A program made the position numbers and the translations under genes. A stretch of DNA of 64,000 nucleotides from Armatimonadota bacterium (lineage in GTDB: Bacteria; Armatimonadota; SYMT01): positions 135,744 through 199,743 of the forward strand of contig JBKBRF010000005.1 of assembly GCA_046292385.1 (NCBI GenBank), read 5' to 3'. Below, piece after piece: positions 9,914-38,928 of the stretch; position 1 is the stretch's first letter, and each line of letters starts with the position of its first letter. Below the pieces are notes generated by a model. It saw only the letters and a list, made by a program, of their open reading frames with translations. It made no database searches and had not been told where the DNA came from.

Positions 9914-12544
9914 CTACTGGCTCGCTTTTTTCTGGAGCTGGTAGAGGATCGTGAGCGCTTCGATCGGGGTGGTGGTGGAGAGGTCGAGCTTGCGCAGCTC
10001 TTCCACGGCCGGGTTCTCCGCCGCTTCGAAGAGACTTAGCTGCACCCGCTCGGCGCGGGGCTGCACCTGCGCGCCGGCGGAGGGCAGGCCGCCGTTGACG
10101 CCGCTGCTGGAGCTTTCCAGGTCCCGCAGCACCTCGCGGGCACGCTCGATCACCGCGTCCGGCAGGCCGGCGAGGCGGCCGACCTGGATCCCGTAGCTCT
10201 TGTCGGTGCCGCCGGGGACGATCTTGCGGAGCCAGACGATGTGGTGCCCGTCTTCCTTCACCGCGGCGCGGTAGTTCTTCACGCCCGGGAGGCGCTCCGC
10301 CAGGTCGTTCAGGTGGTGGTAGTGCGTGGCGAAGAGCGTCTTGGCGCCCGCCTGCTGGAGGTACTCCGCCACCGACCACGCGATCGAGAGCCCATCGTAG
10401 GTGCTGGTGCCGCGGCCGATCTCGTCCAGGATCACCAGGCTGCGGTCGGTGACGTTGTTCAGGATGTTGGCGGTCTCGTTCATCTCCACCATGAAGGTGG
10501 ACTGGCCGCTGGCGAGGTCATCGTGGGCGCCGACGCGGGTGAAGATGCGGTCGACCACCCCGATCCGCGCGGAGTCCGCGGGGACGAAGCTGCCGGCCTG
10601 CGCCATCAGCGTGATGAGGGCGACCTGCCGCAGGTAGGTGCTCTTCCCCGCCATGTTGGGGCCGGTGATGATAAGCAGCCGGCTCTCTCCGCCGTCGAGG
10701 CAGGCGTCGTTGGGAACGAACGGCTCCTGACCCAGCTTTTCCACCACCGGGTGGCGCCCGTTGCGGATCTCGATCCGGTCGCCGGTATCGACCACCGGAC
10801 GCACGTAGTCGTTCCGCACCGCGCACTCCGCGAGGGCGGTAAGGACGTCGAGCTCCGCCACCGCGCCCGCGACGGCCAGCACGCGCGCCGCCTCGCGCCC
10901 CACGCGGTCCCGCAGCTCCTGGAAGAGCCGCTCCTCCATCGCCTGGATCTTTTCCTCGGCGCCCAGGATCAGCGCTTCCTTCTCCTTCAGCTCCGGCGTG
11001 ATGTAGCGCTCCGCGTTGGCGGTGGTCTGCTTCCGGTGGTAATCCGCGGGAACGAGGTGGATGTTCGGCTTCGTCACCTCGATGTAGTAGCCGAAGACCG
11101 AGTTGTAGCCGACCTTGAGGCTCTTGATGCCGGTCCGCTCTCGCTCGGTGCTCTCCAGCGCGGCGATCCAGTCTTTCCCGTCCACGCTGGCGGTGCGCAG
11201 CTCGTCGAGCTGCGGCGAGTAGCCGGGGCGGATCACGCCGCCGTCGCGGAGGTTGGCGGGCGGCTCGTCCACGAGGCCGGTCTCCAGGAGCTGGACCAGG
11301 TCCTCCAGCGGCTCCAGCCGTTCCCCCAGCTCGCTCAGGTAGACGGAGGCGCAGGGCGTAACCAGCTCCTTCAGCTCCGGCACCCGCGCCAGGGATGAGC
11401 GCAGGCCGGAGAGGTCGCGCGGGTTGGCGGCGCCGGTAGCGCAGCGGCTGGCGAGCCGCTCCAGGTCGCTCACCTGGGAGAGCCGCTCCCGGAGGTCGCC
11501 GCGGAGCAGGCCGCTCTCCGCCAGCTCCGCTACCGAGTCGAGCCGCTCGTTGATCCGCACCGGGTCGAGCAGCGGCTGCTCCAGCCACCTCCGCAGCAGC
11601 CGCGCGCCCATCGCGGTCCCGGTGCAGTCGAGCACCGAGAGCAGCGTGCGGGAGCGGCCGCCTTCCCACATCGACTGCGTCAGCTCCAGGTTGCGGCGGG
11701 CGGTCGGGTCGAGGCGCATGAACTCGCCGACGGTATAGGTGGAAAGGCTGCGGAGGTGCTGCGCGGCCTCGATGTGCCGCCGGCCGAGGTAGTGGAGCAC
11801 CAGGCGGGCTGCCTCGATCGCGCGCTCCATCTCCTCGCAGCCGAAGCCGCGTAGGGAGTGGACGCGGAAATGCTCCAGCAGCGCCTGCCGGGCCGTCTTG
11901 CGCGGGAACGCCTCCGCCTCCACCGGGGTGACGGTCCACCTCCGCCCCTGGCAGAGCCAGCTCTCCGCTCGCGCCGCCAGCTCCGCCGGCAGCACCAGCT
12001 CCCGCGGCGCCAGGCGCTCCAGCTCTTCCAGGAGGCGGCGGGCGGCGTGCGGGGCCTTCAGCTCCGTCACCGCGAACTCGCCGGTCGAGACGTCGCAGAT
12101 CGCCAGCCCGAACTCCGCTACGTGGTCCTCTCCGGAGACGACCACCGCGGCGAGATAGCTGTTCGCCTTCGCCTCCAGCATCGAGTCGTCGAGGACGGTG
12201 CCGGGCGTGACGACCCGGGTCACCTTCCGCTTGACGATCCCCTTGGCGAACTTGGGGTTCTCTACCTGTTCACAGATCGCCACGCGGTGCCCCGCCGCTA
12301 CGAGCCGTGCCAGGTAGCGCTCCTGCGCGTGATACGGCACCCCGCACATGGGGATCCGCTCGCCCTGCACGTAGTCGCGCGAGGTAAGCGTGATCTCCAG
12401 CACGCGCGCGGCGATCTCCGCGTCCTCCCCGAACATCTCGTAGAAGTCGCCGAGGCGGAACATCAGGAGCACGTCCGGGTACTGGCGCTTGATCTCCCAG
12501 TACTGGCGGAAGAGCGGCGTGAGCTGGTCGGCGGCGGGAGGCAT
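9914..12544 (-). CDS. mutS: DNA mismatch repair protein MutS
   Basis: FRLGDFYEMF, ITGPNMAGKST, STFMVEM, DEIGRGT, FATHYH; start MPPAADQLTP. Confidence 0.98.
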   Translation of the reverse strand: MPPAADQLTPLFRQYWEIKRQYPDVLLMFRLGDFYEMFGEDAEIAARVLEITLTSRDYVQGERIPMCGVPYHAQERYLARLVAAGHRVAICEQVENPKFAKGIVKRKVTRVVTPGTVLDDSMLEAKANSYLAAVVVSGEDHVAEFGLAICDVSTGEFAVTELKAPHAARRLLEELERLAPRELVLPAELAARAESWLCQGRRWTVTPVEAEAFPRKTARQALLEHFRVHSLRGFGCEEMERAIEAARLVLHYLGRRHIEAAQHLRSLSTYTVGEFMRLDPTARRNLELTQSMWEGGRSRTLLSVLDCTGTAMGARLLRRWLEQPLLDPVRINERLDSVAELAESGLLRGDLRERLSQVSDLERLASRCATGAANPRDLSGLRSSLARVPELKELVTPCASVYLSELGERLEPLEDLVQLLETGLVDEPPANLRDGGVIRPGYSPQLDELRTASVDGKDWIAALESTERERTGIKSLKVGYNSVFGYYIEVTKPNIHLVPADYHRKQTTANAERYITPELKEKEALILGAEEKIQAMEERLFQELRDRVGREAARVLAVAGAVAELDVLTALAECAVRNDYVRPVVDTGDRIEIRNGRHPVVEKLGQEPFVPNDACLDGGESRLLIITGPNMAGKSTYLRQVALITLMAQAGSFVPADSARIGVVDRIFTRVGAHDDLASGQSTFMVEMNETANILNNVTDRSLVILDEIGRGTSTYDGLSIAWSVAEYLQQAGAKTLFATHYHHLNDLAERLPGVKNYRAAVKEDGHHIVWLRKIVPGGTDKSYGIQVGRLAGLPDAVIERAREVLRDLESSSSGVNGGLPSAGAQVQPRAERVQLSLFEAAENPAVEELRKLDLSTTTPIEALTILYQLQKKASQ

Positions 12545-12706
12545 GGTGGGAGCTGCGGTGCGGATCAGAGTCGGCGCGGGGGCCGGGTAGTTGTAAGGCA
12601 AACGGACGAAGCGGGCACAGGCGCAGGCGCATTCGCCGCGCTCCCCGCGCTCCTCTATAATCGTAACAGCGCACGCGCGGACGTGCCTTGCTCCCGTGGA
12701 TGCCTG

Positions 12707-13297
12707 ATGGCGCTGGGAGAGAGCCTGGTTCTGGATTCCGACCCCGAGCGGATCTTCACCGAGGCCGATCTGGCGGCGCTCCCTGCGGAGCTGCCGTCCG
12801 GCCCCGTGTGGTGGGAGCTCGACCACGGCAGGCTCCTGGCCATGCCGCTGCCGGAACTGGACCACAGCATCGCCCTGACGAACCTCGCATGTGCCCTGAA
12901 GCGCGACGGTGAGCTACGCGGCCACGGCCGCGCAGTCGGACGGGTCGGGGTGGTGCTCTGGCGCAGCCCGGACCGCGTCGTGGGCGCGGACGCAGCCTTC
13001 ATCGCCAGCGGGTCGCTGCCGGCGCGGCGCTCCCCGGAAGACTACCTGGAGACGATTCCCGAGCTAGTGGTCGAGGTCGTCAGTATTCAGGACACGCCGG
13101 GCTACGTCCGCCGCAAAGTCGAGGACTACCTGACCGCCGGTGTGAAAGTGGTTTGGCTGGCGAACCCGGCCACCCACACGGTGACGGAGTACCGCCCCGC
13201 CGGCGGGCCGAGAGAGTACCGGGACGGTGACACGCTGACCGTGGAGGACCTGATCCCCGGCTTCTCCATGCCGATCGAAGAGGTGTTCCGGGTCTGA
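12707..13297 (+). CDS. Uma2 family endonuclease
   Basis: ELDHGRL, ADAAFI, PELVVEVVS, KVEDYLTAGVKVVWL, DLIPGF; TATAAT at 12656. Confidence 0.9.
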   Translation: MALGESLVLDSDPERIFTEADLAALPAELPSGPVWWELDHGRLLAMPLPELDHSIALTNLACALKRDGELRGHGRAVGRVGVVLWRSPDRVVGADAAFIASGSLPARRSPEDYLETIPELVVEVVSIQDTPGYVRRKVEDYLTAGVKVVWLANPATHTVTEYRPAGGPREYRDGDTLTVEDLIPGFSMPIEEVFRV

Positions 13298-13304
13298 CGC
13301 GGGG

Positions 13305-14237
13305 CTACGTGCCCGCCAGCTCCTTCAGCCGCTCCACTCGCTTCGGCTCGTTCTTGACCAGCCAGGCGTCCCTGGAGAGCAGCTCGTAGGCTCGCGCGAA
13401 GTGCGGCTTCGCCTCTTCGTGGCGCTTTAGCGCGAGCAGGCACTCCCCCAGTTCCTCGTAGAGGTAGCCGTCCGGATCGTTCGCCTGCTCCGACTCCGTG
13501 CGGATTGCCTCCTGGATCGTCAGCGCCTGCTCGACCTTGCCGAGGGCGCGGAGGGTCTTGCCGACTGAGTACTTGGCGATCCGGATCTGGACCGGGCTGC
13601 CGTGCTGCTGGTAGAAAGCCTGGGCCTTGTTCAACAGCTCCAGCGCCGTGGGGTAATCGCCGCGCTCGTAGTAGGTCCAGCCGGTGTTGTTGTAGAGCGG
13701 CCCCAGCCAGCGGCGGGCGCGCTCGTTCTTGCTGCGCTCCGCCAGCCCGATCGCCTGGAGGTTCCACTTCAGCGCCTCGTCCGGCGTCTCCGCGATGCCG
13801 AGCATGTGGGCGGCGTCGAGCGCGTACGCTTCCTCCCCCGCCGCGTTCGCCAGCTCCCACGCCTCGCGGAAGAGCCGCCGGGCCCGCTCCGGCTTCTGGT
13901 CGGAATTGAAGGTGCGGCCCCGCTCCAGCAGGTAGCGCACGCGGGCGGTCTTCAGGTCCGGCTGAAGCAGCCCCTCCGCCTCGTCCAGGATGCGGTGCGC
14001 CTCCGCGAACTTGCCCTGGAGACTCTGGGTGCGGCCGAGCTGGGTCAGGAGCTGCACCAGGTAGTCCCGGTTGCCGGACCGCCTGGCGCGGGGAAGCAGC
14101 TCCCGGAACGTCTCCGCCGTCTCCTCCGGCTGCTGGTAGTTCCAGAGCTTGTCGATCACCGGAAGCGGCTCATCGTCCGGCTCCCGCGCGGCGATGGCGA
14201 GCGCCAGGAGTGAGCAGAGCAGGATGAGCACGGTCAT
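13305..14237 (-). CDS. Secreted tetratricopeptide-repeat protein
   Basis: Signal peptide and several TPR-like repeats (LYNNTGWTYYERGDYPTALE). Confidence 0.8.
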   Translation of the reverse strand: MTVLILLCSLLALAIAAREPDDEPLPVIDKLWNYQQPEETAETFRELLPRARRSGNRDYLVQLLTQLGRTQSLQGKFAEAHRILDEAEGLLQPDLKTARVRYLLERGRTFNSDQKPERARRLFREAWELANAAGEEAYALDAAHMLGIAETPDEALKWNLQAIGLAERSKNERARRWLGPLYNNTGWTYYERGDYPTALELLNKAQAFYQQHGSPVQIRIAKYSVGKTLRALGKVEQALTIQEAIRTESEQANDPDGYLYEELGECLLALKRHEEAKPHFARAYELLSRDAWLVKNEPKRVERLKELAGT

Positions 14238-14334
14238 GGCAGCCTCCGTTCCGGATCCCGGCAGCTTGCCGGGCAGGCATGGAAGCGTTCGCCGGCCGGG
14301 AGGCGGGTCCTCCTCCCGGCCGGCGATGGCCGGG

Positions 14335-15477
14335 CTACTTTTCGACCGGAGTGTCCGGGCGGCTGGTGTAGTCCGCGAACGAGCCGTAGTAGACTTTGAC
14401 CCGGGGGTAGCCGATCAGCTTGAGCGTGAAGAGGGAGTGCGACGCACGCCCGCCCGACGCTCAATAAGTGACCACCTCTTTGTCGGGGGTTACCCCCTTG
14501 CTCTCGTAGAGCTTCTTCAGCTCCGGGCCGCTCTTGAACACCTGGTGCGGGCCGGTCACGTTCTCCGACCAGTCGACGTTCACCGAATTCGGGATCCGAC
14601 CCGCCTTCTTCGCGCCGCCGGAGAGCCGCTCTCCCGTGAATTCGTCTGCGGAGCGGGTGTCCAGCACCACCACGTCGGGCCGACGCGCGAGCAGCTCCGG
14701 CGCGGCGCAGACCAGCTCCGGCACCTTCTTCGGTTTGAAGGTCGTCGCGGCGACCCGGGGAGCTTCCACCGTCGTGGGCCGCTTCTCCGCCGTCCACTTG
14801 CTCCAGCCGCCGTTGACCAGGCTCACCTTCGGGTGGCCGTAGGCGTTCAGCACGAACCAGAGCCGGGCCGCGCTGCGGCCGCCCGCGTCATCGTAGATCA
14901 CCACGTGGGTGTCGGCGCCGATCCCCGCCTTTCCCATCATCGCAGCGAACGCCTCCGGGCTCGGCAGGAAGTCGGCGGTGTCGTTCGCGTCCCGCAGCGG
15001 GCCCTCGGACAGCCGGACCGCCCCCGGGAGGTGCCCGGCGGAGTACTTCTCATCCGAGCGCATGTCGACGATCCGGACCGTCGGGTCCTGGAGCCGGTGC
15101 TCCAGCCAGCTCGTCTCCACCAGCAGCTCCGGGTGGGCCCAGCCGCCGGAGCGGAACGTCTCCAGGTGCGCGAAGAGCGCCTGCGCCTTCTCGCCGTCGA
15201 GCTGCACCGCGGCGAAGCCTTTCGACTTCTCGATCACCTCCAGGGCGGAGAGGCGCTGCGTGATGTCGACCAGGCTCCTGGCGCCGGCGTAGGTGGTGGT
15301 ATCGGCGCCGTCCTCGCCGTGACAGCGCGCGCAGTAGGTGGCGTAGAGCGTCTCGCCCTTCGCCCGCAGGCTCGCGGACTCCGGCCTGGGAGCCGCCTGC
15401 GCGCCGAGGACAGACGCCAGGACTATTCCGATGGACGCGCCCACGCCCGCCCAGGCCGCGACTCTTCGCGGATACAT
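14335..15477 (-). CDS. Secreted cytochrome c-tandem rhodanese (sulfurtransferase) fusion with in-frame TGA at the catalytic Cys; probable selenoprotein
   Basis: CARCH heme motif, GHLPGA, GRIP; KEVVTY-TGA(14461-14463)-ASGGRASHSLFTLKLIGYPRVKVYYGSFADYTSRPDTPVEK-TAG completes the rhodanese domain. Confidence 0.85.
14420..14464 (-). promoter_or_regulatory. SECIS-like hairpin at and after the UGA
   Basis: UUGAGCGU/ACGCUCAA 8-bp base, GGG/CCC, apex GUGC-GUC-GCAC with loop G at +18 from UGA. Confidence 0.6.
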
Positions 15478-15650
15478 CGATCCCCCTCCCGCGGCGCCTC
15501 CGCGCCGCTCCGATTCAGTCTACTCCGGGCCGGCTTCGATGACCCGCGTCACCACGCGTGCTGCCGAATTCAACTGGAATGCGATACGTAGACGGCACCG
15601 ACTATCTGACCGGGAGAACCCCAGACCCCCTCGTTCAGGAGTAGCCCCGA

Positions 15651-35131: not shown

Positions 35132-36253
35132 TTGAGCCCATCTGACCGATCTCCCGATAACTCAGATTCCCGCGTGGCGGAGGCACGAGCTACCGTAGAC
35201 GCCGTGGAGCGGGACCTCACGGCAGGTCGCATTCCGCGGGCCCGGCAGCGCCTCACCGAGGCCGCCCGAGTGCTCAAGAAAGCCGCCTGCTTGTCCGATG
35301 CGTCCCGCGCTTACCGGGTGCTTGCCGAGCTGGAGCGCCGACGCGGCGAGATGCCGTCAGCGGTGGCTGCAGCACGCCTTGCCCTGCGGGTAGTGCGTCA
35401 CGAGCCCGAGTCCGGCTCGGCAGAGGCGGCGCTCGCGCTGCTGGCGCAGCTCCACTGCGACGCCAGCGACGCCGGCGCGGCGCTGAAGCATGCCTCGCAG
35501 TGCCTCCAGCAAGCGGAGGCACGCGGAGAGCGCGCCGGAATCGCCGCGGCGCTGCAGCTGCAGGCTGCCGCCTATCTGGCCGCGCGGAGCTACGGCCTCG
35601 CCGTGCAGCACGCGGCGGCCGCGGTAGCCGCGGAAGACGGGACGCAGGCGGAGCTCTGCTCCCGCGGCCGCCGCCTGCTGGCCCTCGCGCTGCTCCAGGC
35701 GGGCTGCCCCGTGGCGGCGGTGCGGGAGCTGTCCCCTCTCCTCCCGCGCCGCGAGGCGACGGCGGCAGACATTCCGGCGCTCACGGCCCGAGGCTTTGCC
35801 CATCTCACCGTCGGAAACGTAGCGGCCGGAGCCCGGGATCTGCGGAAGGCGGCGCGGCTTACCCGCCAGTGCGAGGACCGCCGGCGCGAGGCGCAGACGC
35901 TGGCGGCTCACGCACTGGCGGAAATGATGCTTGCGCGCGACACCGACCGCCCCAAGCGTGCGGCGGCAGCGGAGCGCCTGGCGGCGCGCGCCACCCGCCT
36001 CGCCCAGCGCGTGCGAGACCCCCGGACGCTCAGCGCGGTGGAGTGGATGGTCGCCGCGATGCACCGGAATCCGTCGCCGTTCGAAGGCCTGCCGGTACGG
36101 GAGACCGCGCGGGGGTTGGTGAAACAGGCCCATGAGGCGGAGTGCCTGACGCTGACCGGGGCTTGCCTGGCCGAAGTGGAGCGCCTGCAGCAGTTTCGCG
36201 AGGAACAGCTGATCCGGCGGTGTGCGTTCGTGCCGCCGCTCTGCCTGGAGTAG
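35132..36253 (+). CDS. Hypothetical all-helical TPR-like protein
   Basis: Long Ala/Leu/Arg-rich ORF with TPR-like helices; TTG start after AGGAAA. Confidence 0.6.
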   Translation: MSPSDRSPDNSDSRVAEARATVDAVERDLTAGRIPRARQRLTEAARVLKKAACLSDASRAYRVLAELERRRGEMPSAVAAARLALRVVRHEPESGSAEAALALLAQLHCDASDAGAALKHASQCLQQAEARGERAGIAAALQLQAAAYLAARSYGLAVQHAAAAVAAEDGTQAELCSRGRRLLALALLQAGCPVAAVRELSPLLPRREATAADIPALTARGFAHLTVGNVAAGARDLRKAARLTRQCEDRRREAQTLAAHALAEMMLARDTDRPKRAAAAERLAARATRLAQRVRDPRTLSAVEWMVAAMHRNPSPFEGLPVRETARGLVKQAHEAECLTLTGACLAEVERLQQFREEQLIRRCAFVPPLCLE

Positions 36254-36334
36254 GCGCGGACCGCCAGGGAAGGCCCTCTTTCCCAGGAAGGGGCCGGCGG
36301 ACTAAGGGGTAGGCGGGAAGTACTACCGGATTCC

Positions 36335-36388
36335 CGCCTCGGACTAAAGTCGAGGCTACAGAGAGCGAAGCCCGCCTGCGCGGGCTGA
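36335..36388 (-). repeat. GTAG-type REP element
   Basis: Reverse of GTAGCCTCGACTTTAGTCCGAGGCG plus AGCCCGCCTGCGCGGGCT hairpin; same core at 42909-42933. Confidence 0.75.
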
Positions 36389-36467
36389 GATGTGCCGCTT
36401 TGAACAGCTGGCGTTACTCACTTACTGCCCCTTCATACTCCGTAAGTCCGGGATGGAGGGCCGGATT

Positions 36468-36626
36468 GCTCAAGGGAGAGTGGGAGACGTCTGTTGTAGA
36501 TTAGCAAGTTGGCACGTTGCAGGGTGCGCTCCGGTGGGTGGGGTTCGGAACCTGAAACTTGCTAACCTGGAACCTGCTAACAGCAGCGAGAGAGCGGCTC
36601 CCCCACTCTCCCTTGCTCCCACTCCT
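36468..36626. repeat. Nested inverted short-repeat element
   Basis: AAGGGAGAGTGGGAG / CTCCCCCACTCTCCCTTG outer arms; inner TTAGCAAG / AACTTGCTAACCTGGAACCTGCTAAC. Confidence 0.65.
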
Positions 36627-36653
36627 ACAGAGCAGAAGTACCTGGAGACATCC

Positions 36654-37181
36654 TTAGCTCTCCTGCAGATCTTCGAGCGCTGCCTGCGCGAAGCCGCAGT
36701 CCGGCACCCGGAAGCGGCCGCTCATCTCGCCGCCGCCCTTCAGGAGGCGCAGGTGCTCGGCGCAGTGGGAGGCGCTGGCGGAGACCAGGGGAAGGTAGGC
36801 GAGGAGTCCGTCCAGCACGCGGGCGCGGCGGCGGAGAAACCGGTACTGCAGGATGAGCCGCTCGCCGTCCACCAGGAGCTCCGCGGGGCTCAGCTCTCGC
36901 TCCCGCAGGTCGCGAAGGTCCCGCTCGCAGTCGAAGAGCGCGTTCTGGATGGCGCCCTGGACCTCGACCAGCGTGCGGACGGCTGATTCCGCCTGACGGA
37001 GGTGTACCTCGGTGATGCGCTGGCGGCGGCCAAGCTGACCTTCCTCCGCCTGGGCGGTCCGCTCGTTCACCTCGGCGACTGCCTGCATCAGCTCCTTCGC
37101 AGCGGACTGTATTAGCCGGCACTGCGTCTCCAGCCAAACGTCGGGCGTAATGGAGGGATGCGGGCGAGCGTCGGATGTCAT
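36654..37181 (-). CDS. Hypothetical coiled-coil protein
   Basis: ORF with AGGAAAAG upstream and amphipathic helices. Confidence 0.6.
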   Translation of the reverse strand: MTSDARPHPSITPDVWLETQCRLIQSAAKELMQAVAEVNERTAQAEEGQLGRRQRITEVHLRQAESAVRTLVEVQGAIQNALFDCERDLRDLRERELSPAELLVDGERLILQYRFLRRRARVLDGLLAYLPLVSASASHCAEHLRLLKGGGEMSGRFRVPDCGFAQAALEDLQES

Positions 37182-37332
37182 GCGGTATCTTTTCCTGGTC
37201 GGCGCCCGGACTCACCACGCCGCGGGTGCCGTTGGCCGCTATTCTAACACAGACCACCTGAACGCTAGAACCCCCCCAGACTCCCGGAGCCCCGCGCCCG
37301 GACCCCTGGGGCTCCCCACCCCAGCGCCTGTC

Positions 37333-38928
37333 ATGGACCGCCGCCGCGCGATCGTCGTCGCTCTGGTACTGCTCTCGGCCCTGTTCCTGGCGAGTGTGCC
37401 GTTTCTGTATGGGTACGCGGTCGAGCCGGAGGGGACGCGCTTCTGGGCGGTGCCGGTGGTGAACTCGTTCGACGCGAACCAGTACCTCGCCTTCACCCGC
37501 ATCGTCGCGGACGGCAGCCTGCTGGTCGGCGATCCGTTCACCTCGGAGCCGCACCAGCCGCGTCTGCTGCTTCCCCAGGTCTGGTTCCAGGCGCTCGTCA
37601 TGCGGCTCACCGGCAGCACCCCGCAGGAGGCGTTCCAGGTGAGCCGCGTCCTCTCCGGCGCCGCCCTGCTCCTGGCGGGGTGCTGGCTCGGCTTCCTGCT
37701 GCTGCCCCGGTGGCGGCTGCGCTGGCTCTTCCTGGCGCTGCTCTGCTTCTCCACCGGCGCCTCCTGGTACCTGGAGCTGCTGGGGTACCGCATCCCGAAC
37801 GGCGACCTGGTCCAGCCGGAGGGCAACACCTTCTTCTCGCTCGCCAACCTGCCGCACGTGGCGCTCGCCTCCGCGCTGCTCACGGCGCTCTTCGCGCTGC
37901 TCCTGGAGTACGAGCGGAGCGGCGAGGCGAGGTGGCTCTGGATTACGGTGGGGGTCTCGCTGCTCCTCTCCTGGACCCATCCGTTCGACTACGTCCCGCT
38001 CGGCATGGGCGTCCTCGCCTACGGCGCGCTCCGCTGGTGGTGGAGCCGGGAGATCCCGGTCCGGGTGATCGTGCAGGGCGGCGCCGCGGTCCTGGGCGCC
38101 CTCCCTGCCGCGCTCTACCTTGGCTGGCTCGTCTCGACCGACCCGATCTACAAGCAGCTGGCGAACGACGTGCTCCAGGTGAACCCGTTCCGCTTCTACC
38201 TGATCGCGCACGTGCTGCTGGTGGTCCCCGCCCTGGCGGTGCTGCTGCAGCCGGAAGCCCGCCGCCGCTACGCGCTGCCGCTCTGCTGGGTGGTCTGCGC
38301 GTTCCTCTTCCTCTTCACGCCGTTCCGGCTCGGCGGCAAGCAGCCGCGGGTGGTGGGCGGCATCCACGTTCCGCTGGCGATCCTCGCCGCCGCGGGGGCG
38401 GACCTGACCGCGCGGTGGCTGGCGCAGCGGGTAGCGCCGGGGAAGTCGCGCCGGGTCGTCCTCGCGCTGGACGGGATCTATGCCGTCGGCGCCTGCGCGG
38501 GGGTGATCGGCATGGTGCAGCGTCAGGTCGCGGAGTATGCCCGCCGGGAGCCCGACTTCTTCCAGACGCCCGGCATCCAGCAGGCGTTCTCCACCCTCGA
38601 CCGGCTGGGCGACCGCTCCCAGGTGACCCTCGGCGGCGAGTACACCGCCGGGTGGGCGCCGACCTGGGCCGATACTCGCGTCTACCACGGTCACTGGCAC
38701 ATGACGCTGCGGGAGCCGGAGAAGCGGGCGGAGCGCAACTGGTTCTTCACCGCTCCCGCTCCGCCGGAGCAGCGCGCGAAGTGGCTCCGGCAGCGCGGCA
38801 TCGACTGGGTCGTCTGGTGGCCGCCGGAGTGGCAGGGCTGGGCCGTACCGCTCGACCACGTCCCGGGCCTTCAGCCGGTCTACCGCGGGCCGGACGTCGT
38901 CCTCTATCACTTCGAGCCGTCCGCATGA
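37333..38928 (+). CDS. Polytopic membrane protein, GT-C glycosyltransferase-like
   Basis: About 11 TM segments, D..QYLAF and DPFTSEPH in first loop, PH and HPFD motifs, soluble C-terminus (VYHGHW, GIDWV). Confidence 0.7.
   Translation: MDRRRAIVVALVLLSALFLASVPFLYGYAVEPEGTRFWAVPVVNSFDANQYLAFTRIVADGSLLVGDPFTSEPHQPRLLLPQVWFQALVMRLTGSTPQEAFQVSRVLSGAALLLAGCWLGFLLLPRWRLRWLFLALLCFSTGASWYLELLGYRIPNGDLVQPEGNTFFSLANLPHVALASALLTALFALLLEYERSGEARWLWITVGVSLLLSWTHPFDYVPLGMGVLAYGALRWWWSREIPVRVIVQGGAAVLGALPAALYLGWLVSTDPIYKQLANDVLQVNPFRFYLIAHVLLVVPALAVLLQPEARRRYALPLCWVVCAFLFLFTPFRLGGKQPRVVGGIHVPLAILAAAGADLTARWLAQRVAPGKSRRVVLALDGIYAVGACAGVIGMVQRQVAEYARREPDFFQTPGIQQAFSTLDRLGDRSQVTLGGEYTAGWAPTWADTRVYHGHWHMTLREPEKRAERNWFFTAPAPPEQRAKWLRQRGIDWVVWWPPEWQGWAVPLDHVPGLQPVYRGPDVVLYHFEPSA

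Follow-up and report, generated by a model that had tools for sequence, protein, structure and literature searches.

Does a gene whose reading frame halts at the codon of its own catalytic residue really end there? The question is raised by a minus-strand gene at positions 14335..15477 of a 64,000-nucleotide stretch of an Armatimonadota genome (GCA_046292385.1, contig JBKBRF010000005.1, positions 135,744 to 199,743; the whole stretch is called the window below). Translated with table 11 it yields an open reading frame (ORF) of 338 residues, ending ...KEVVTY before a TGA (14463..14461, codon 339). Past that TGA the frame runs on for 41 further codons (ASGGRASHSLFTLKLIGYPRVKVYYGSFADYTSRPDTPVEK; ASGGRASH...PVEK) to a TAG (14337..14335), just as the first-pass annotation, which reported a stop at VVTY-TGA and a continuation to PVEK, had read letters and coordinates. 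Here we argue that codon 339 very probably encodes selenocysteine (Sec) as the catalytic residue of an exported protein in which a cytochrome c module is fused to a rhodanese. A real selenoprotein gene is the best overall explanation, at a probability of roughly 0.8. The two features on which the question turns are these:

14335..15477, minus strand: whole gene, 380 codons including the putative Sec339, from ATG (15477..15475) to TAG (14337..14335); tblastn and HMMER match residues 1-380 with one TGA inside.
14461..14463, minus strand: UGA codon 339, predicted to be read as Sec; it occupies the catalytic position in the active loop (U-A-S-G-G-R) of the second rhodanese domain, as placed by alignment with Cys orthologues.

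The Sec reading draws on the Sec machinery of the genome, on orthologues with Cys or TGA at the site, on purifying selection after the TGA, on 25 further ORFs that end one residue before it, and on a hairpin. Were the TGA instead a true stop, left by a nonsense mutation, pseudogenization or a sequencing or assembly error, the product would be 338 residues without a catalytic loop; this is the ORF given by table 11 and the form taken by the database copy (P0002), which standard annotation has truncated as foreseen in the first-pass annotation. Relatives of the gene nevertheless make a true stop exceedingly improbable. In a search of 61 relatives' genomes, 20 loci were aligned by tblastn, and 18 of them carry at codon 339 the Cys of the active loop Y-C-x-x-G-x-R, so that the TGA does replace the catalytic Cys, as had been proposed. 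TGC stands there in the closest orthologue (G001, 71% identity) and in G002 and G003, while the same TGA as in the window locus (L020) recurs in a different genus (locus L022 of genome G005, 64% identity). With P0002 excluded, the databases gave 119 protein matches. Residue 339 is Cys in 93 of these; 25 end exactly at residue 338, the identical column (17 with a fused cytochrome c module, 6 without one and 2 with an incomplete N-terminus), and the last, a fused protein, breaks off ahead of the site. An independent soil-metagenome contig of 365 nucleotides (run X2) spans 14405-14769 with 11 differences, none of the ten listed falling on the TGA at 14461-14463. The TGA is thus not peculiar to one assembly.

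The frame beyond the TGA is equally at odds with a true stop. Between the two TGA genes (L020 and L022) 30 of the 40 residues after the TGA are identical, the frame is intact with one clean codon indel, and the ratio of nonsynonymous to synonymous substitution (dN/dS) over these 40 aligned codons is 0.27 (dN 0.163, dS 0.604), with 0.28 over the 303 codons compared before the TGA in the same pair; against the Cys orthologue in G001 (L020 versus L021) the tail gives 0.079. A dN/dS of 0.27 past the TGA indicates that the tail is under purifying selection, that is, translated. The genome itself (G000; 7.04 Mb in 91 contigs, 98.45% complete) further speaks against a true stop by holding complete Sec machinery: profile searches found selA (577.9 bits), selB (367.5 bits), selD (362.3 bits) and selC, the tRNA-Sec (66.6 bits), all above curated cut-offs. 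Three of these, selA, selD and the tRNA-Sec gene, are adjacent on contig 11 at 87438-90122 (loci L001, L010 and L012), and selD carries an in-frame TGA of its own (KCGG-TGA-ASK).

A UGA that is read through need not specify Sec: near-cognate insertion of Trp or Cys, or a suppressor tRNA, would also yield the long product, and this alternative gains from a SECIS-like hairpin (see below) that is not clearly distinct from its counterparts in Cys orthologues and matches no curated RNA family. We consider it very improbable all the same. Exchange of Cys and Sec is the rule at such a position in selenoprotein families, Trp would kill catalysis, and a dedicated tRNA-Sec gene stands next to selD and selA in the genome. 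General suppression is unlikely, since TGA is an ordinary stop nearby and ends five of the ten neighbouring genes checked. The phylogeny also resembles that of known selenoprotein families: a quick IQ-TREE maximum likelihood tree of the rhodanese part (LG+G4, SH-aLRT; columns 113-338; 120 rows, P0002 omitted as a duplicate) needs at least seven Sec/Cys changes, and it places the window protein in a clade of 21 rows (SH-aLRT 97), 19 of them Sec-type.

Bacterial selenocysteine insertion sequences (SECIS), as described for bSECISearch, are hairpins shortly 3' of the UGA whose apical loop contains a G. A candidate is the following:

14420..14464, minus strand: SECIS-like hairpin, extended stem including the UGA, predicted by folding; core GGGCGUGC-GUC-GCACUCCC at 14433-14451.

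RNA starting just ahead of the UGA forms a long stem (-32.6 kcal/mol, z -2.25) whose core begins 9 nucleotides past the UGA, with seven of eight core pairs formed in the window gene and all eight, around a GGC loop, in the TGA gene of G005. Over the 48 nucleotides from codon 339, the two TGA genes give the lowest energies of 14 genes (-24.5 and -23.4 kcal/mol, versus -10.5 to -20.9 kcal/mol for the 12 Cys genes). The UGA of selD in the same genome has a similar GC-rich stem, capped by a GUG triloop, about 36 nucleotides downstream; FdhA of this genome has no in-frame TGA and hence supplies no second SECIS for comparison. Pattern scans of metagenomes and genomes recovered two close relatives alone (L040 and L041), one of the six patterns ending in the Cys that is missing from Sec-type genes.

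Several observations weigh against the Sec reading. The hairpin that the first-pass annotation proposed to look for is present and most stable in the two TGA genes, but two of the 12 Cys orthologues (L021 and L025) retain seven of its eight pairs, and an Rfam search of 14330-14520 (at gathering thresholds and at E<=10) matched nothing meaningful. Its loop lies about 20 nucleotides from the UGA, versus about 36 for the best hairpin after the selD UGA, and the comparison covers two Sec-type DNA sequences, too few for a covariation test; the stem is largely a by-product of the conserved GGRASH codons, and the hairpin counts as weak evidence. Of the 25 other Sec-type ORFs, 24 are known by their protein end alone, the exception being P0030, whose contig has the length (285,427 bases) of the one that carries L040, the orthologue of G005, and the eleventh difference of the X2 contig lies outside those listed. 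Machinery is found beside Cys-type genes too: whether the orthologue has Cys or Sec, selA occurs in all five family relatives tested and selB exceeds its cut-off in four of five, so that its presence does not discriminate. On this genomic evidence we hold Sec at residue 339 to be highly likely, and UGA339 would be decoded as Sec in vivo.

What kind of protein would carry this residue? Its further features, all on the minus strand, are as follows:

15482..15490, minus strand: Shine-Dalgarno-like GGGAGGGGG, 4 nucleotides before the ATG, read from the sequence.
15394..15477, minus strand: predicted secretory (Sec-type) signal peptide, residues 1-28 (MYPRR, hydrophobic core, AQA/AP cleavage), read from the sequence with no predictor.
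15148..15372, minus strand: monoheme class I cytochrome c module, residues ~36-110, from Pfam, AlphaFold2 (AF2) and Foldseek.
15319..15333, minus strand: CARCH heme-attachment motif, residues 49-53, a sequence motif.
14770..15132, minus strand: N-terminal non-catalytic rhodanese domain, residues ~116-236 (PF00581, best stretch 122-231; aligned to 1uar).
14707..14709, minus strand: codon of Cys257, a second Cys, in the inter-domain linker, conserved in the periplasmic rhodanese subfamily.
14353..14694, minus strand: C-terminal catalytic rhodanese domain, residues ~262-375 (two rhodanese stretches in Pfam; 1uar phmmer match 112-379).

The N-terminus looks like a secretory signal peptide, in keeping with the earlier description; hydrophobic N-termini occur in all orthologues, and in the AF2 model pLDDT falls below 50 over residues 1-29, the signal peptide region. 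The heme module that follows is real by motif and fold. Pfam assigns residues 39-83 to Cytochrom_C just over its cut-off (22.3 bits, cut-off 21.3) and scores Cytochrome_CBB3 under its own (23.2 bits, cut-off 27), and a single CxxCH occurs in the first 140 residues. The combination of signal peptide, one-CxxCH cytochrome c module and tandem rhodanese is found in at least 35 proteins of the databases: 17 are Sec-type, another 17 Cys-type, and one is truncated ahead of the site. In these 35 fused homologues G41, C49, R51, C52, H53, G54, G57, D59, Y63, S85, F88, L101 and L105 are invariant, which bears out the CARCH heme site of the first-pass annotation. Modelled alone (AF2), the module reaches a pLDDT of 84.8 and has loose Foldseek matches to class I cytochromes (TMq 0.64-0.71, E 0.06-0.2), the best being cytochrome c552 of Thioalkalivibrio, followed by Kustc0563, ActE and XoxG. 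For heme maturation, three Cytochrom_C_asm genes are clustered on contig 7 of the genome, which fits a Ccm system; ResB was looked for in this genome and not found.

Compared with 1.84 billion representative proteins, the module drew matches mostly confined to the surroundings of CxxCH in multiheme proteins. Nine single-stretch matches that cover most of it were examined, and seven of these are rhodanese fusions (P0007, P0040, P0102, P0126, P0189, P0254 and P0266), the other two being an Ig-domain protein (P0223) and a stand-alone cytochrome (P0179). The latter, of 124 residues with a hydrophobic, Cys-containing N-terminus, is 51% identical to the heme module and has no Met after its CxxCH. 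In P0189, P0254 and P0266 the cytochrome c-rhodanese fusion is of a more remote kind, its heme module being 38-46% identical and bearing the motif CQRCHG; by their sequences, their second rhodanese domain seems to be without the C-x-x-G-x-R loop, and they may form an inactive or re-purposed sister family.

The remainder of the chain is a tandem rhodanese. Pfam recognizes two rhodanese domains (PF00581, 4e-39), with the C/U-x-x-G-x-R catalytic loop in the second, and the full-length AF2 model (pLDDT 92.6, pTM 0.88) matches tandem rhodaneses over residues 112-379. The best match is the Thermus thermophilus rhodanese 1uar (TMt 0.90, rmsd 2.0, 38% identity, phmmer E 1.4e-47), followed by RhdA of Azotobacter vinelandii (1e0c; TMt 0.89, 33% identity, phmmer E 4.5e-40) and then by mycobacterial SseA and CysA proteins. 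1uar and 1e0c share with the window protein the two-domain fold and a six-residue catalytic loop that starts at Cys (Sec in the window), but they are cytoplasmic, have Cys rather than Sec, and lack both the cytochrome c module and the linker Cys257. This Cys is conserved in all 84 non-fused rows and in 36 of the 37 fused ones, the remaining row having Ser, and 1uar has no Cys at the aligned place; that it serves as the resolving Cys is a guess. No NCBIfam model reached its cut-off for the window protein. The 3-mercaptopyruvate sulfurtransferase (3-MST) equivalog NF008557 scored 137.8 bits against a cut-off of 250; the 3-MST loop motif is CG[ST]GVT, and the window family has a loop of the CASGGR type, not the 3-MST type. 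The second-best match, at 59.2 bits against a cut-off of 200, was NF040901, the selenite/tellurite-operon rhodanese ExtH.

How the two parts of the chain sit together was predicted with a natural Cys orthologue (P0003), split into cytochrome c module and rhodanese part with the heme riding along. The pair scored 0.69 versus 0.01 for the best of three controls; 116 of 157 solved complexes attain 0.69, as do 2 of 215 mismatched pairs, although the use of our own alignment and of a riding ligand makes these counts rough. Contacts agree between runs to at least 96%, and partner pLDDT is at least 85. The prediction shows the cytochrome c module packing in a defined manner on the rhodanese part, and as both belong to one natural chain this is not binding of separate proteins. 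The named interface (P0003 numbering) sets residues 72, 75-76 and 107-113 against 114-128 and 315-319.

The earlier picture of a rhodanese "wired to an electron-carrying heme" holds in one half: the heme module is there by motif and fold. The wiring is something we infer, and here, too, points stand against the redox part of our explanation. A conserved Met or second His as distal ligand, looked for in the 35 fused homologues, was found in none, H104 varying as H, F or Y, so that the heme may not be a simple electron carrier; as P0179 also lacks the Met, the unusual ligation is a trait of this kind of module, independent of the fusion. The named interface omits CxxCH, the catalytic loop and the linker Cys, an omission that is no evidence against contact, and Sec339 or Cys257 as the missing heme ligand is unsupported by the model, neither being named there.

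These same features would suit a heme that acts as sensor or gate (for redox state, O2, NO or sulfide binding) or as a docking module on an otherwise plain sulfurtransferase, for example in cyanide or sulfide detoxification. The missing sixth ligand would fit a ligand-binding heme, the predicted interface leaves out heme motif and catalytic loop, and fused and non-fused forms interchange often on the tree (17 changes, a soft count with deep branches poorly resolved). Such a role is, in our estimate, quite unlikely. Sec is typical of redox catalysis, and it goes with the fusion: 17 of the 35 fused proteins are Sec-type versus 6 of 82 complete non-fused ones, in a sample ordered by resemblance to a fused Sec query and lacking phylogenetic independence. 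The full-domain relatives of the module, moreover, are almost all rhodanese fusions (seven of the nine examined). A cytochrome gene upstream of the non-fused relatives is rare, a CxxCH frame being present at one of the ten loci where the gene was located (L203).

The fusion has a narrow range within the phylum. Full-length fused matches, sought in a sample of 401 Armatimonadota genomes, are confined to the window's family, where five of seven genomes have one, and two of these five have TGA at codon 339; in genome G380 two TGA codons lie elsewhere in the gene and the catalytic codon is TGC. A metatranscriptome run (X18) yielded one 183-nucleotide contig that covers 14495-14677 with five differences, too little to claim transcription.

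Recoding at this position has precedent. Sec-containing rhodaneses of COG2897 are listed as three Sargasso Sea sequences in 2005 (tables of PMC1088965), as three sequences in Olavius symbionts in 2007 (by the account in PMC1976440), and as "rhodanese-like form 4, UxxG" in the tables of a 2026 review (PMC13188914), so the statement in the first-pass annotation that such proteins are known is correct. As described in those sources, they resemble the window protein in being tandem, SseA/COG2897-like and U-x-x-G (U-A-S-G in the window) with Sec at the catalytic position; they are known from sequence analysis alone, and their entries, compared here by description only, name no module of heme or cytochrome type. 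The main text of that review nowhere uses the words "heme", "periplasm" or "signal peptide". Full-text literature searches found neither a cytochrome c-rhodanese fusion nor a periplasmic location for a Sec rhodanese, supplementary files, which may list such proteins, being outside their scope. The sole paper with both "rhodanese domain" and "cytochrome c domain" (PMC13047784) was set aside, the phrases standing in unrelated passages. The recoding itself is accordingly a new member of a catalogued kind, and the fusion to a cytochrome c module is new to the literature searched.

The nearest functional parallel is the ext cluster of Geobacter sulfurreducens. It encodes MccSep (ExtKL) and the rhodanese lipoprotein ExtH (named in PMC5877670). 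MccSep, a five-heme selenoprotein of the periplasm, reduces both polysulfide and selenite by means of a Sec beside a His/Cys-ligated heme (PMC13510729). On that account both systems would bring together heme c, Sec and rhodanese in the periplasm for S-S bond or selenite reduction, the function being inferred for the window protein; in MccSep, however, Sec sits in the five-heme cytochrome and the rhodanese is a separate protein, whereas the window has one heme, Sec in the rhodanese, and one chain. Judged by sequence, the window protein is not a member of the MccSep or ExtH family. TsdA (thiosulfate dehydrogenase/tetrathionate reductase) and SoxAX, c-type heme enzymes of the periplasm, process thiosulfate at a reactive Cys, with electrons passing to or from heme. 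They appear as weak, non-specific fold matches to the cytochrome c module (ranks 16-37, E 0.4-0.8) and differ in that their reactive Cys is a heme ligand in a diheme protein with no rhodanese domain.

We therefore set out the following model for the Sec-containing fusion. UGA339 would be decoded as Sec by the genome's own SelA, SelB, SelD and tRNA-Sec, helped by the GC-rich hairpin 9 nucleotides downstream. The 380-residue product would be exported through its secretory signal peptide and would receive one heme c on C49/C52/H53 from the contig 7 Ccm system. In the periplasm a single polypeptide is predicted, its class I-like cytochrome c module packed rigidly against the tandem rhodanese. Rhodaneses have a persulfide-forming Cys at the catalytic position; a selenolate in its place might attack sulfane sulfur (thiosulfate, polysulfide or tetrathionate) or a selenium oxyanion to give an Se-S or Se-Se adduct, and the heme would move electrons between the adduct and the periplasmic electron pool, turning a sulfurtransferase into an oxidoreductase. 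A redox-coupled sulfur or selenium function of this sort, as reductase or as oxidase, is a tentative proposal that falls somewhat short of even odds. It is speculative that the heme feeds or drains electrons for S-S bond or selenite reduction or for thiosulfate oxidation. The most specific version, a one-chain minimal counterpart of ExtH plus MccSep in largely aerobic soil and hot-spring Armatimonadota, with the adduct resolved by Cys257 and a non-Met heme moving electrons, is doubtful.

Selenium might instead be the physiological substrate of the selenoprotein, in periplasmic selenite reduction or detoxification or in handing selenium on, as has been proposed for Geobacter ExtH and the ext cluster. 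ExtH is the second-best NCBIfam match, but its score is far under the cut-off; MccSep, as reported in PMC13510729, reduces selenite besides polysulfide. The gene neighbourhoods offer no hint of function. A chromate-type oxyanion transporter adjoins the G005 orthologue, which also has a glycosyltransferase for a neighbour. No ext-like porin or multiheme genes lie near the window gene, and a conserved neighbourhood, sought among the orthologues, was found in none, a further point against our explanation: neighbours are MutS, Uma2, TPR, NUDIX and HD genes in the window, PadR and hemerythrin in G001, and MiaA in G003. The non-fused Cys relatives, too, resemble general periplasmic rhodaneses. On balance we think selenium as the substrate unlikely.

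The gene looks monocistronic, given an inverted repeat after its stop:

14289..14326, minus strand: 18-nucleotide inverted repeat, 94% complementary, just 3' of the rhodanese stop; a terminator-like hairpin without a U tract on the minus strand.

The terminator-like sites listed near this gene end are plus-strand sites only (14315-14334). The repeat separates the rhodanese stop from the following same-strand gene, which encodes a TPR protein with a signal peptide (13305-14237). Between the TPR gene and mutS is a gene for a Uma2-family putative endonuclease (12752-13297); an open frame that extends far upstream of this gene, antisense to mutS (ORF 11858-13297), is probably just a long GC-rich frame. 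Elsewhere in the window, two adjacent tRNA genes occupy 63399-63471 and 63487-63559 on the plus strand (Rfam, 60 and 55.9 bits). An Rfam match to CRISPR-DR28 at 36364-36387 (35.4 bits, gathering threshold 35) was rejected as a chance match, there being no direct repeats within 35500-38500.

The finding bears first on how such proteins are recorded. In public databases roughly half of the fused proteins break off immediately ahead of the active site (for example P0002, P0022 and P0030), and the lack of an NCBIfam model over its cut-off may be the reason that they stay so. The catalogued Sec rhodaneses are products of sequence analysis, and the subfamily described here is sizeable and well defined, with natural Cys counterparts that can be expressed directly. 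Its covalent heme module argues that some rhodaneses are redox enzymes and not plain sulfur carriers, and ties them to the recently solved Sec-plus-heme chemistry of MccSep. If the proposed mechanism is true, these proteins would constitute a new enzyme class, in which a rhodanese works as a heme-dependent chalcogen oxidoreductase.

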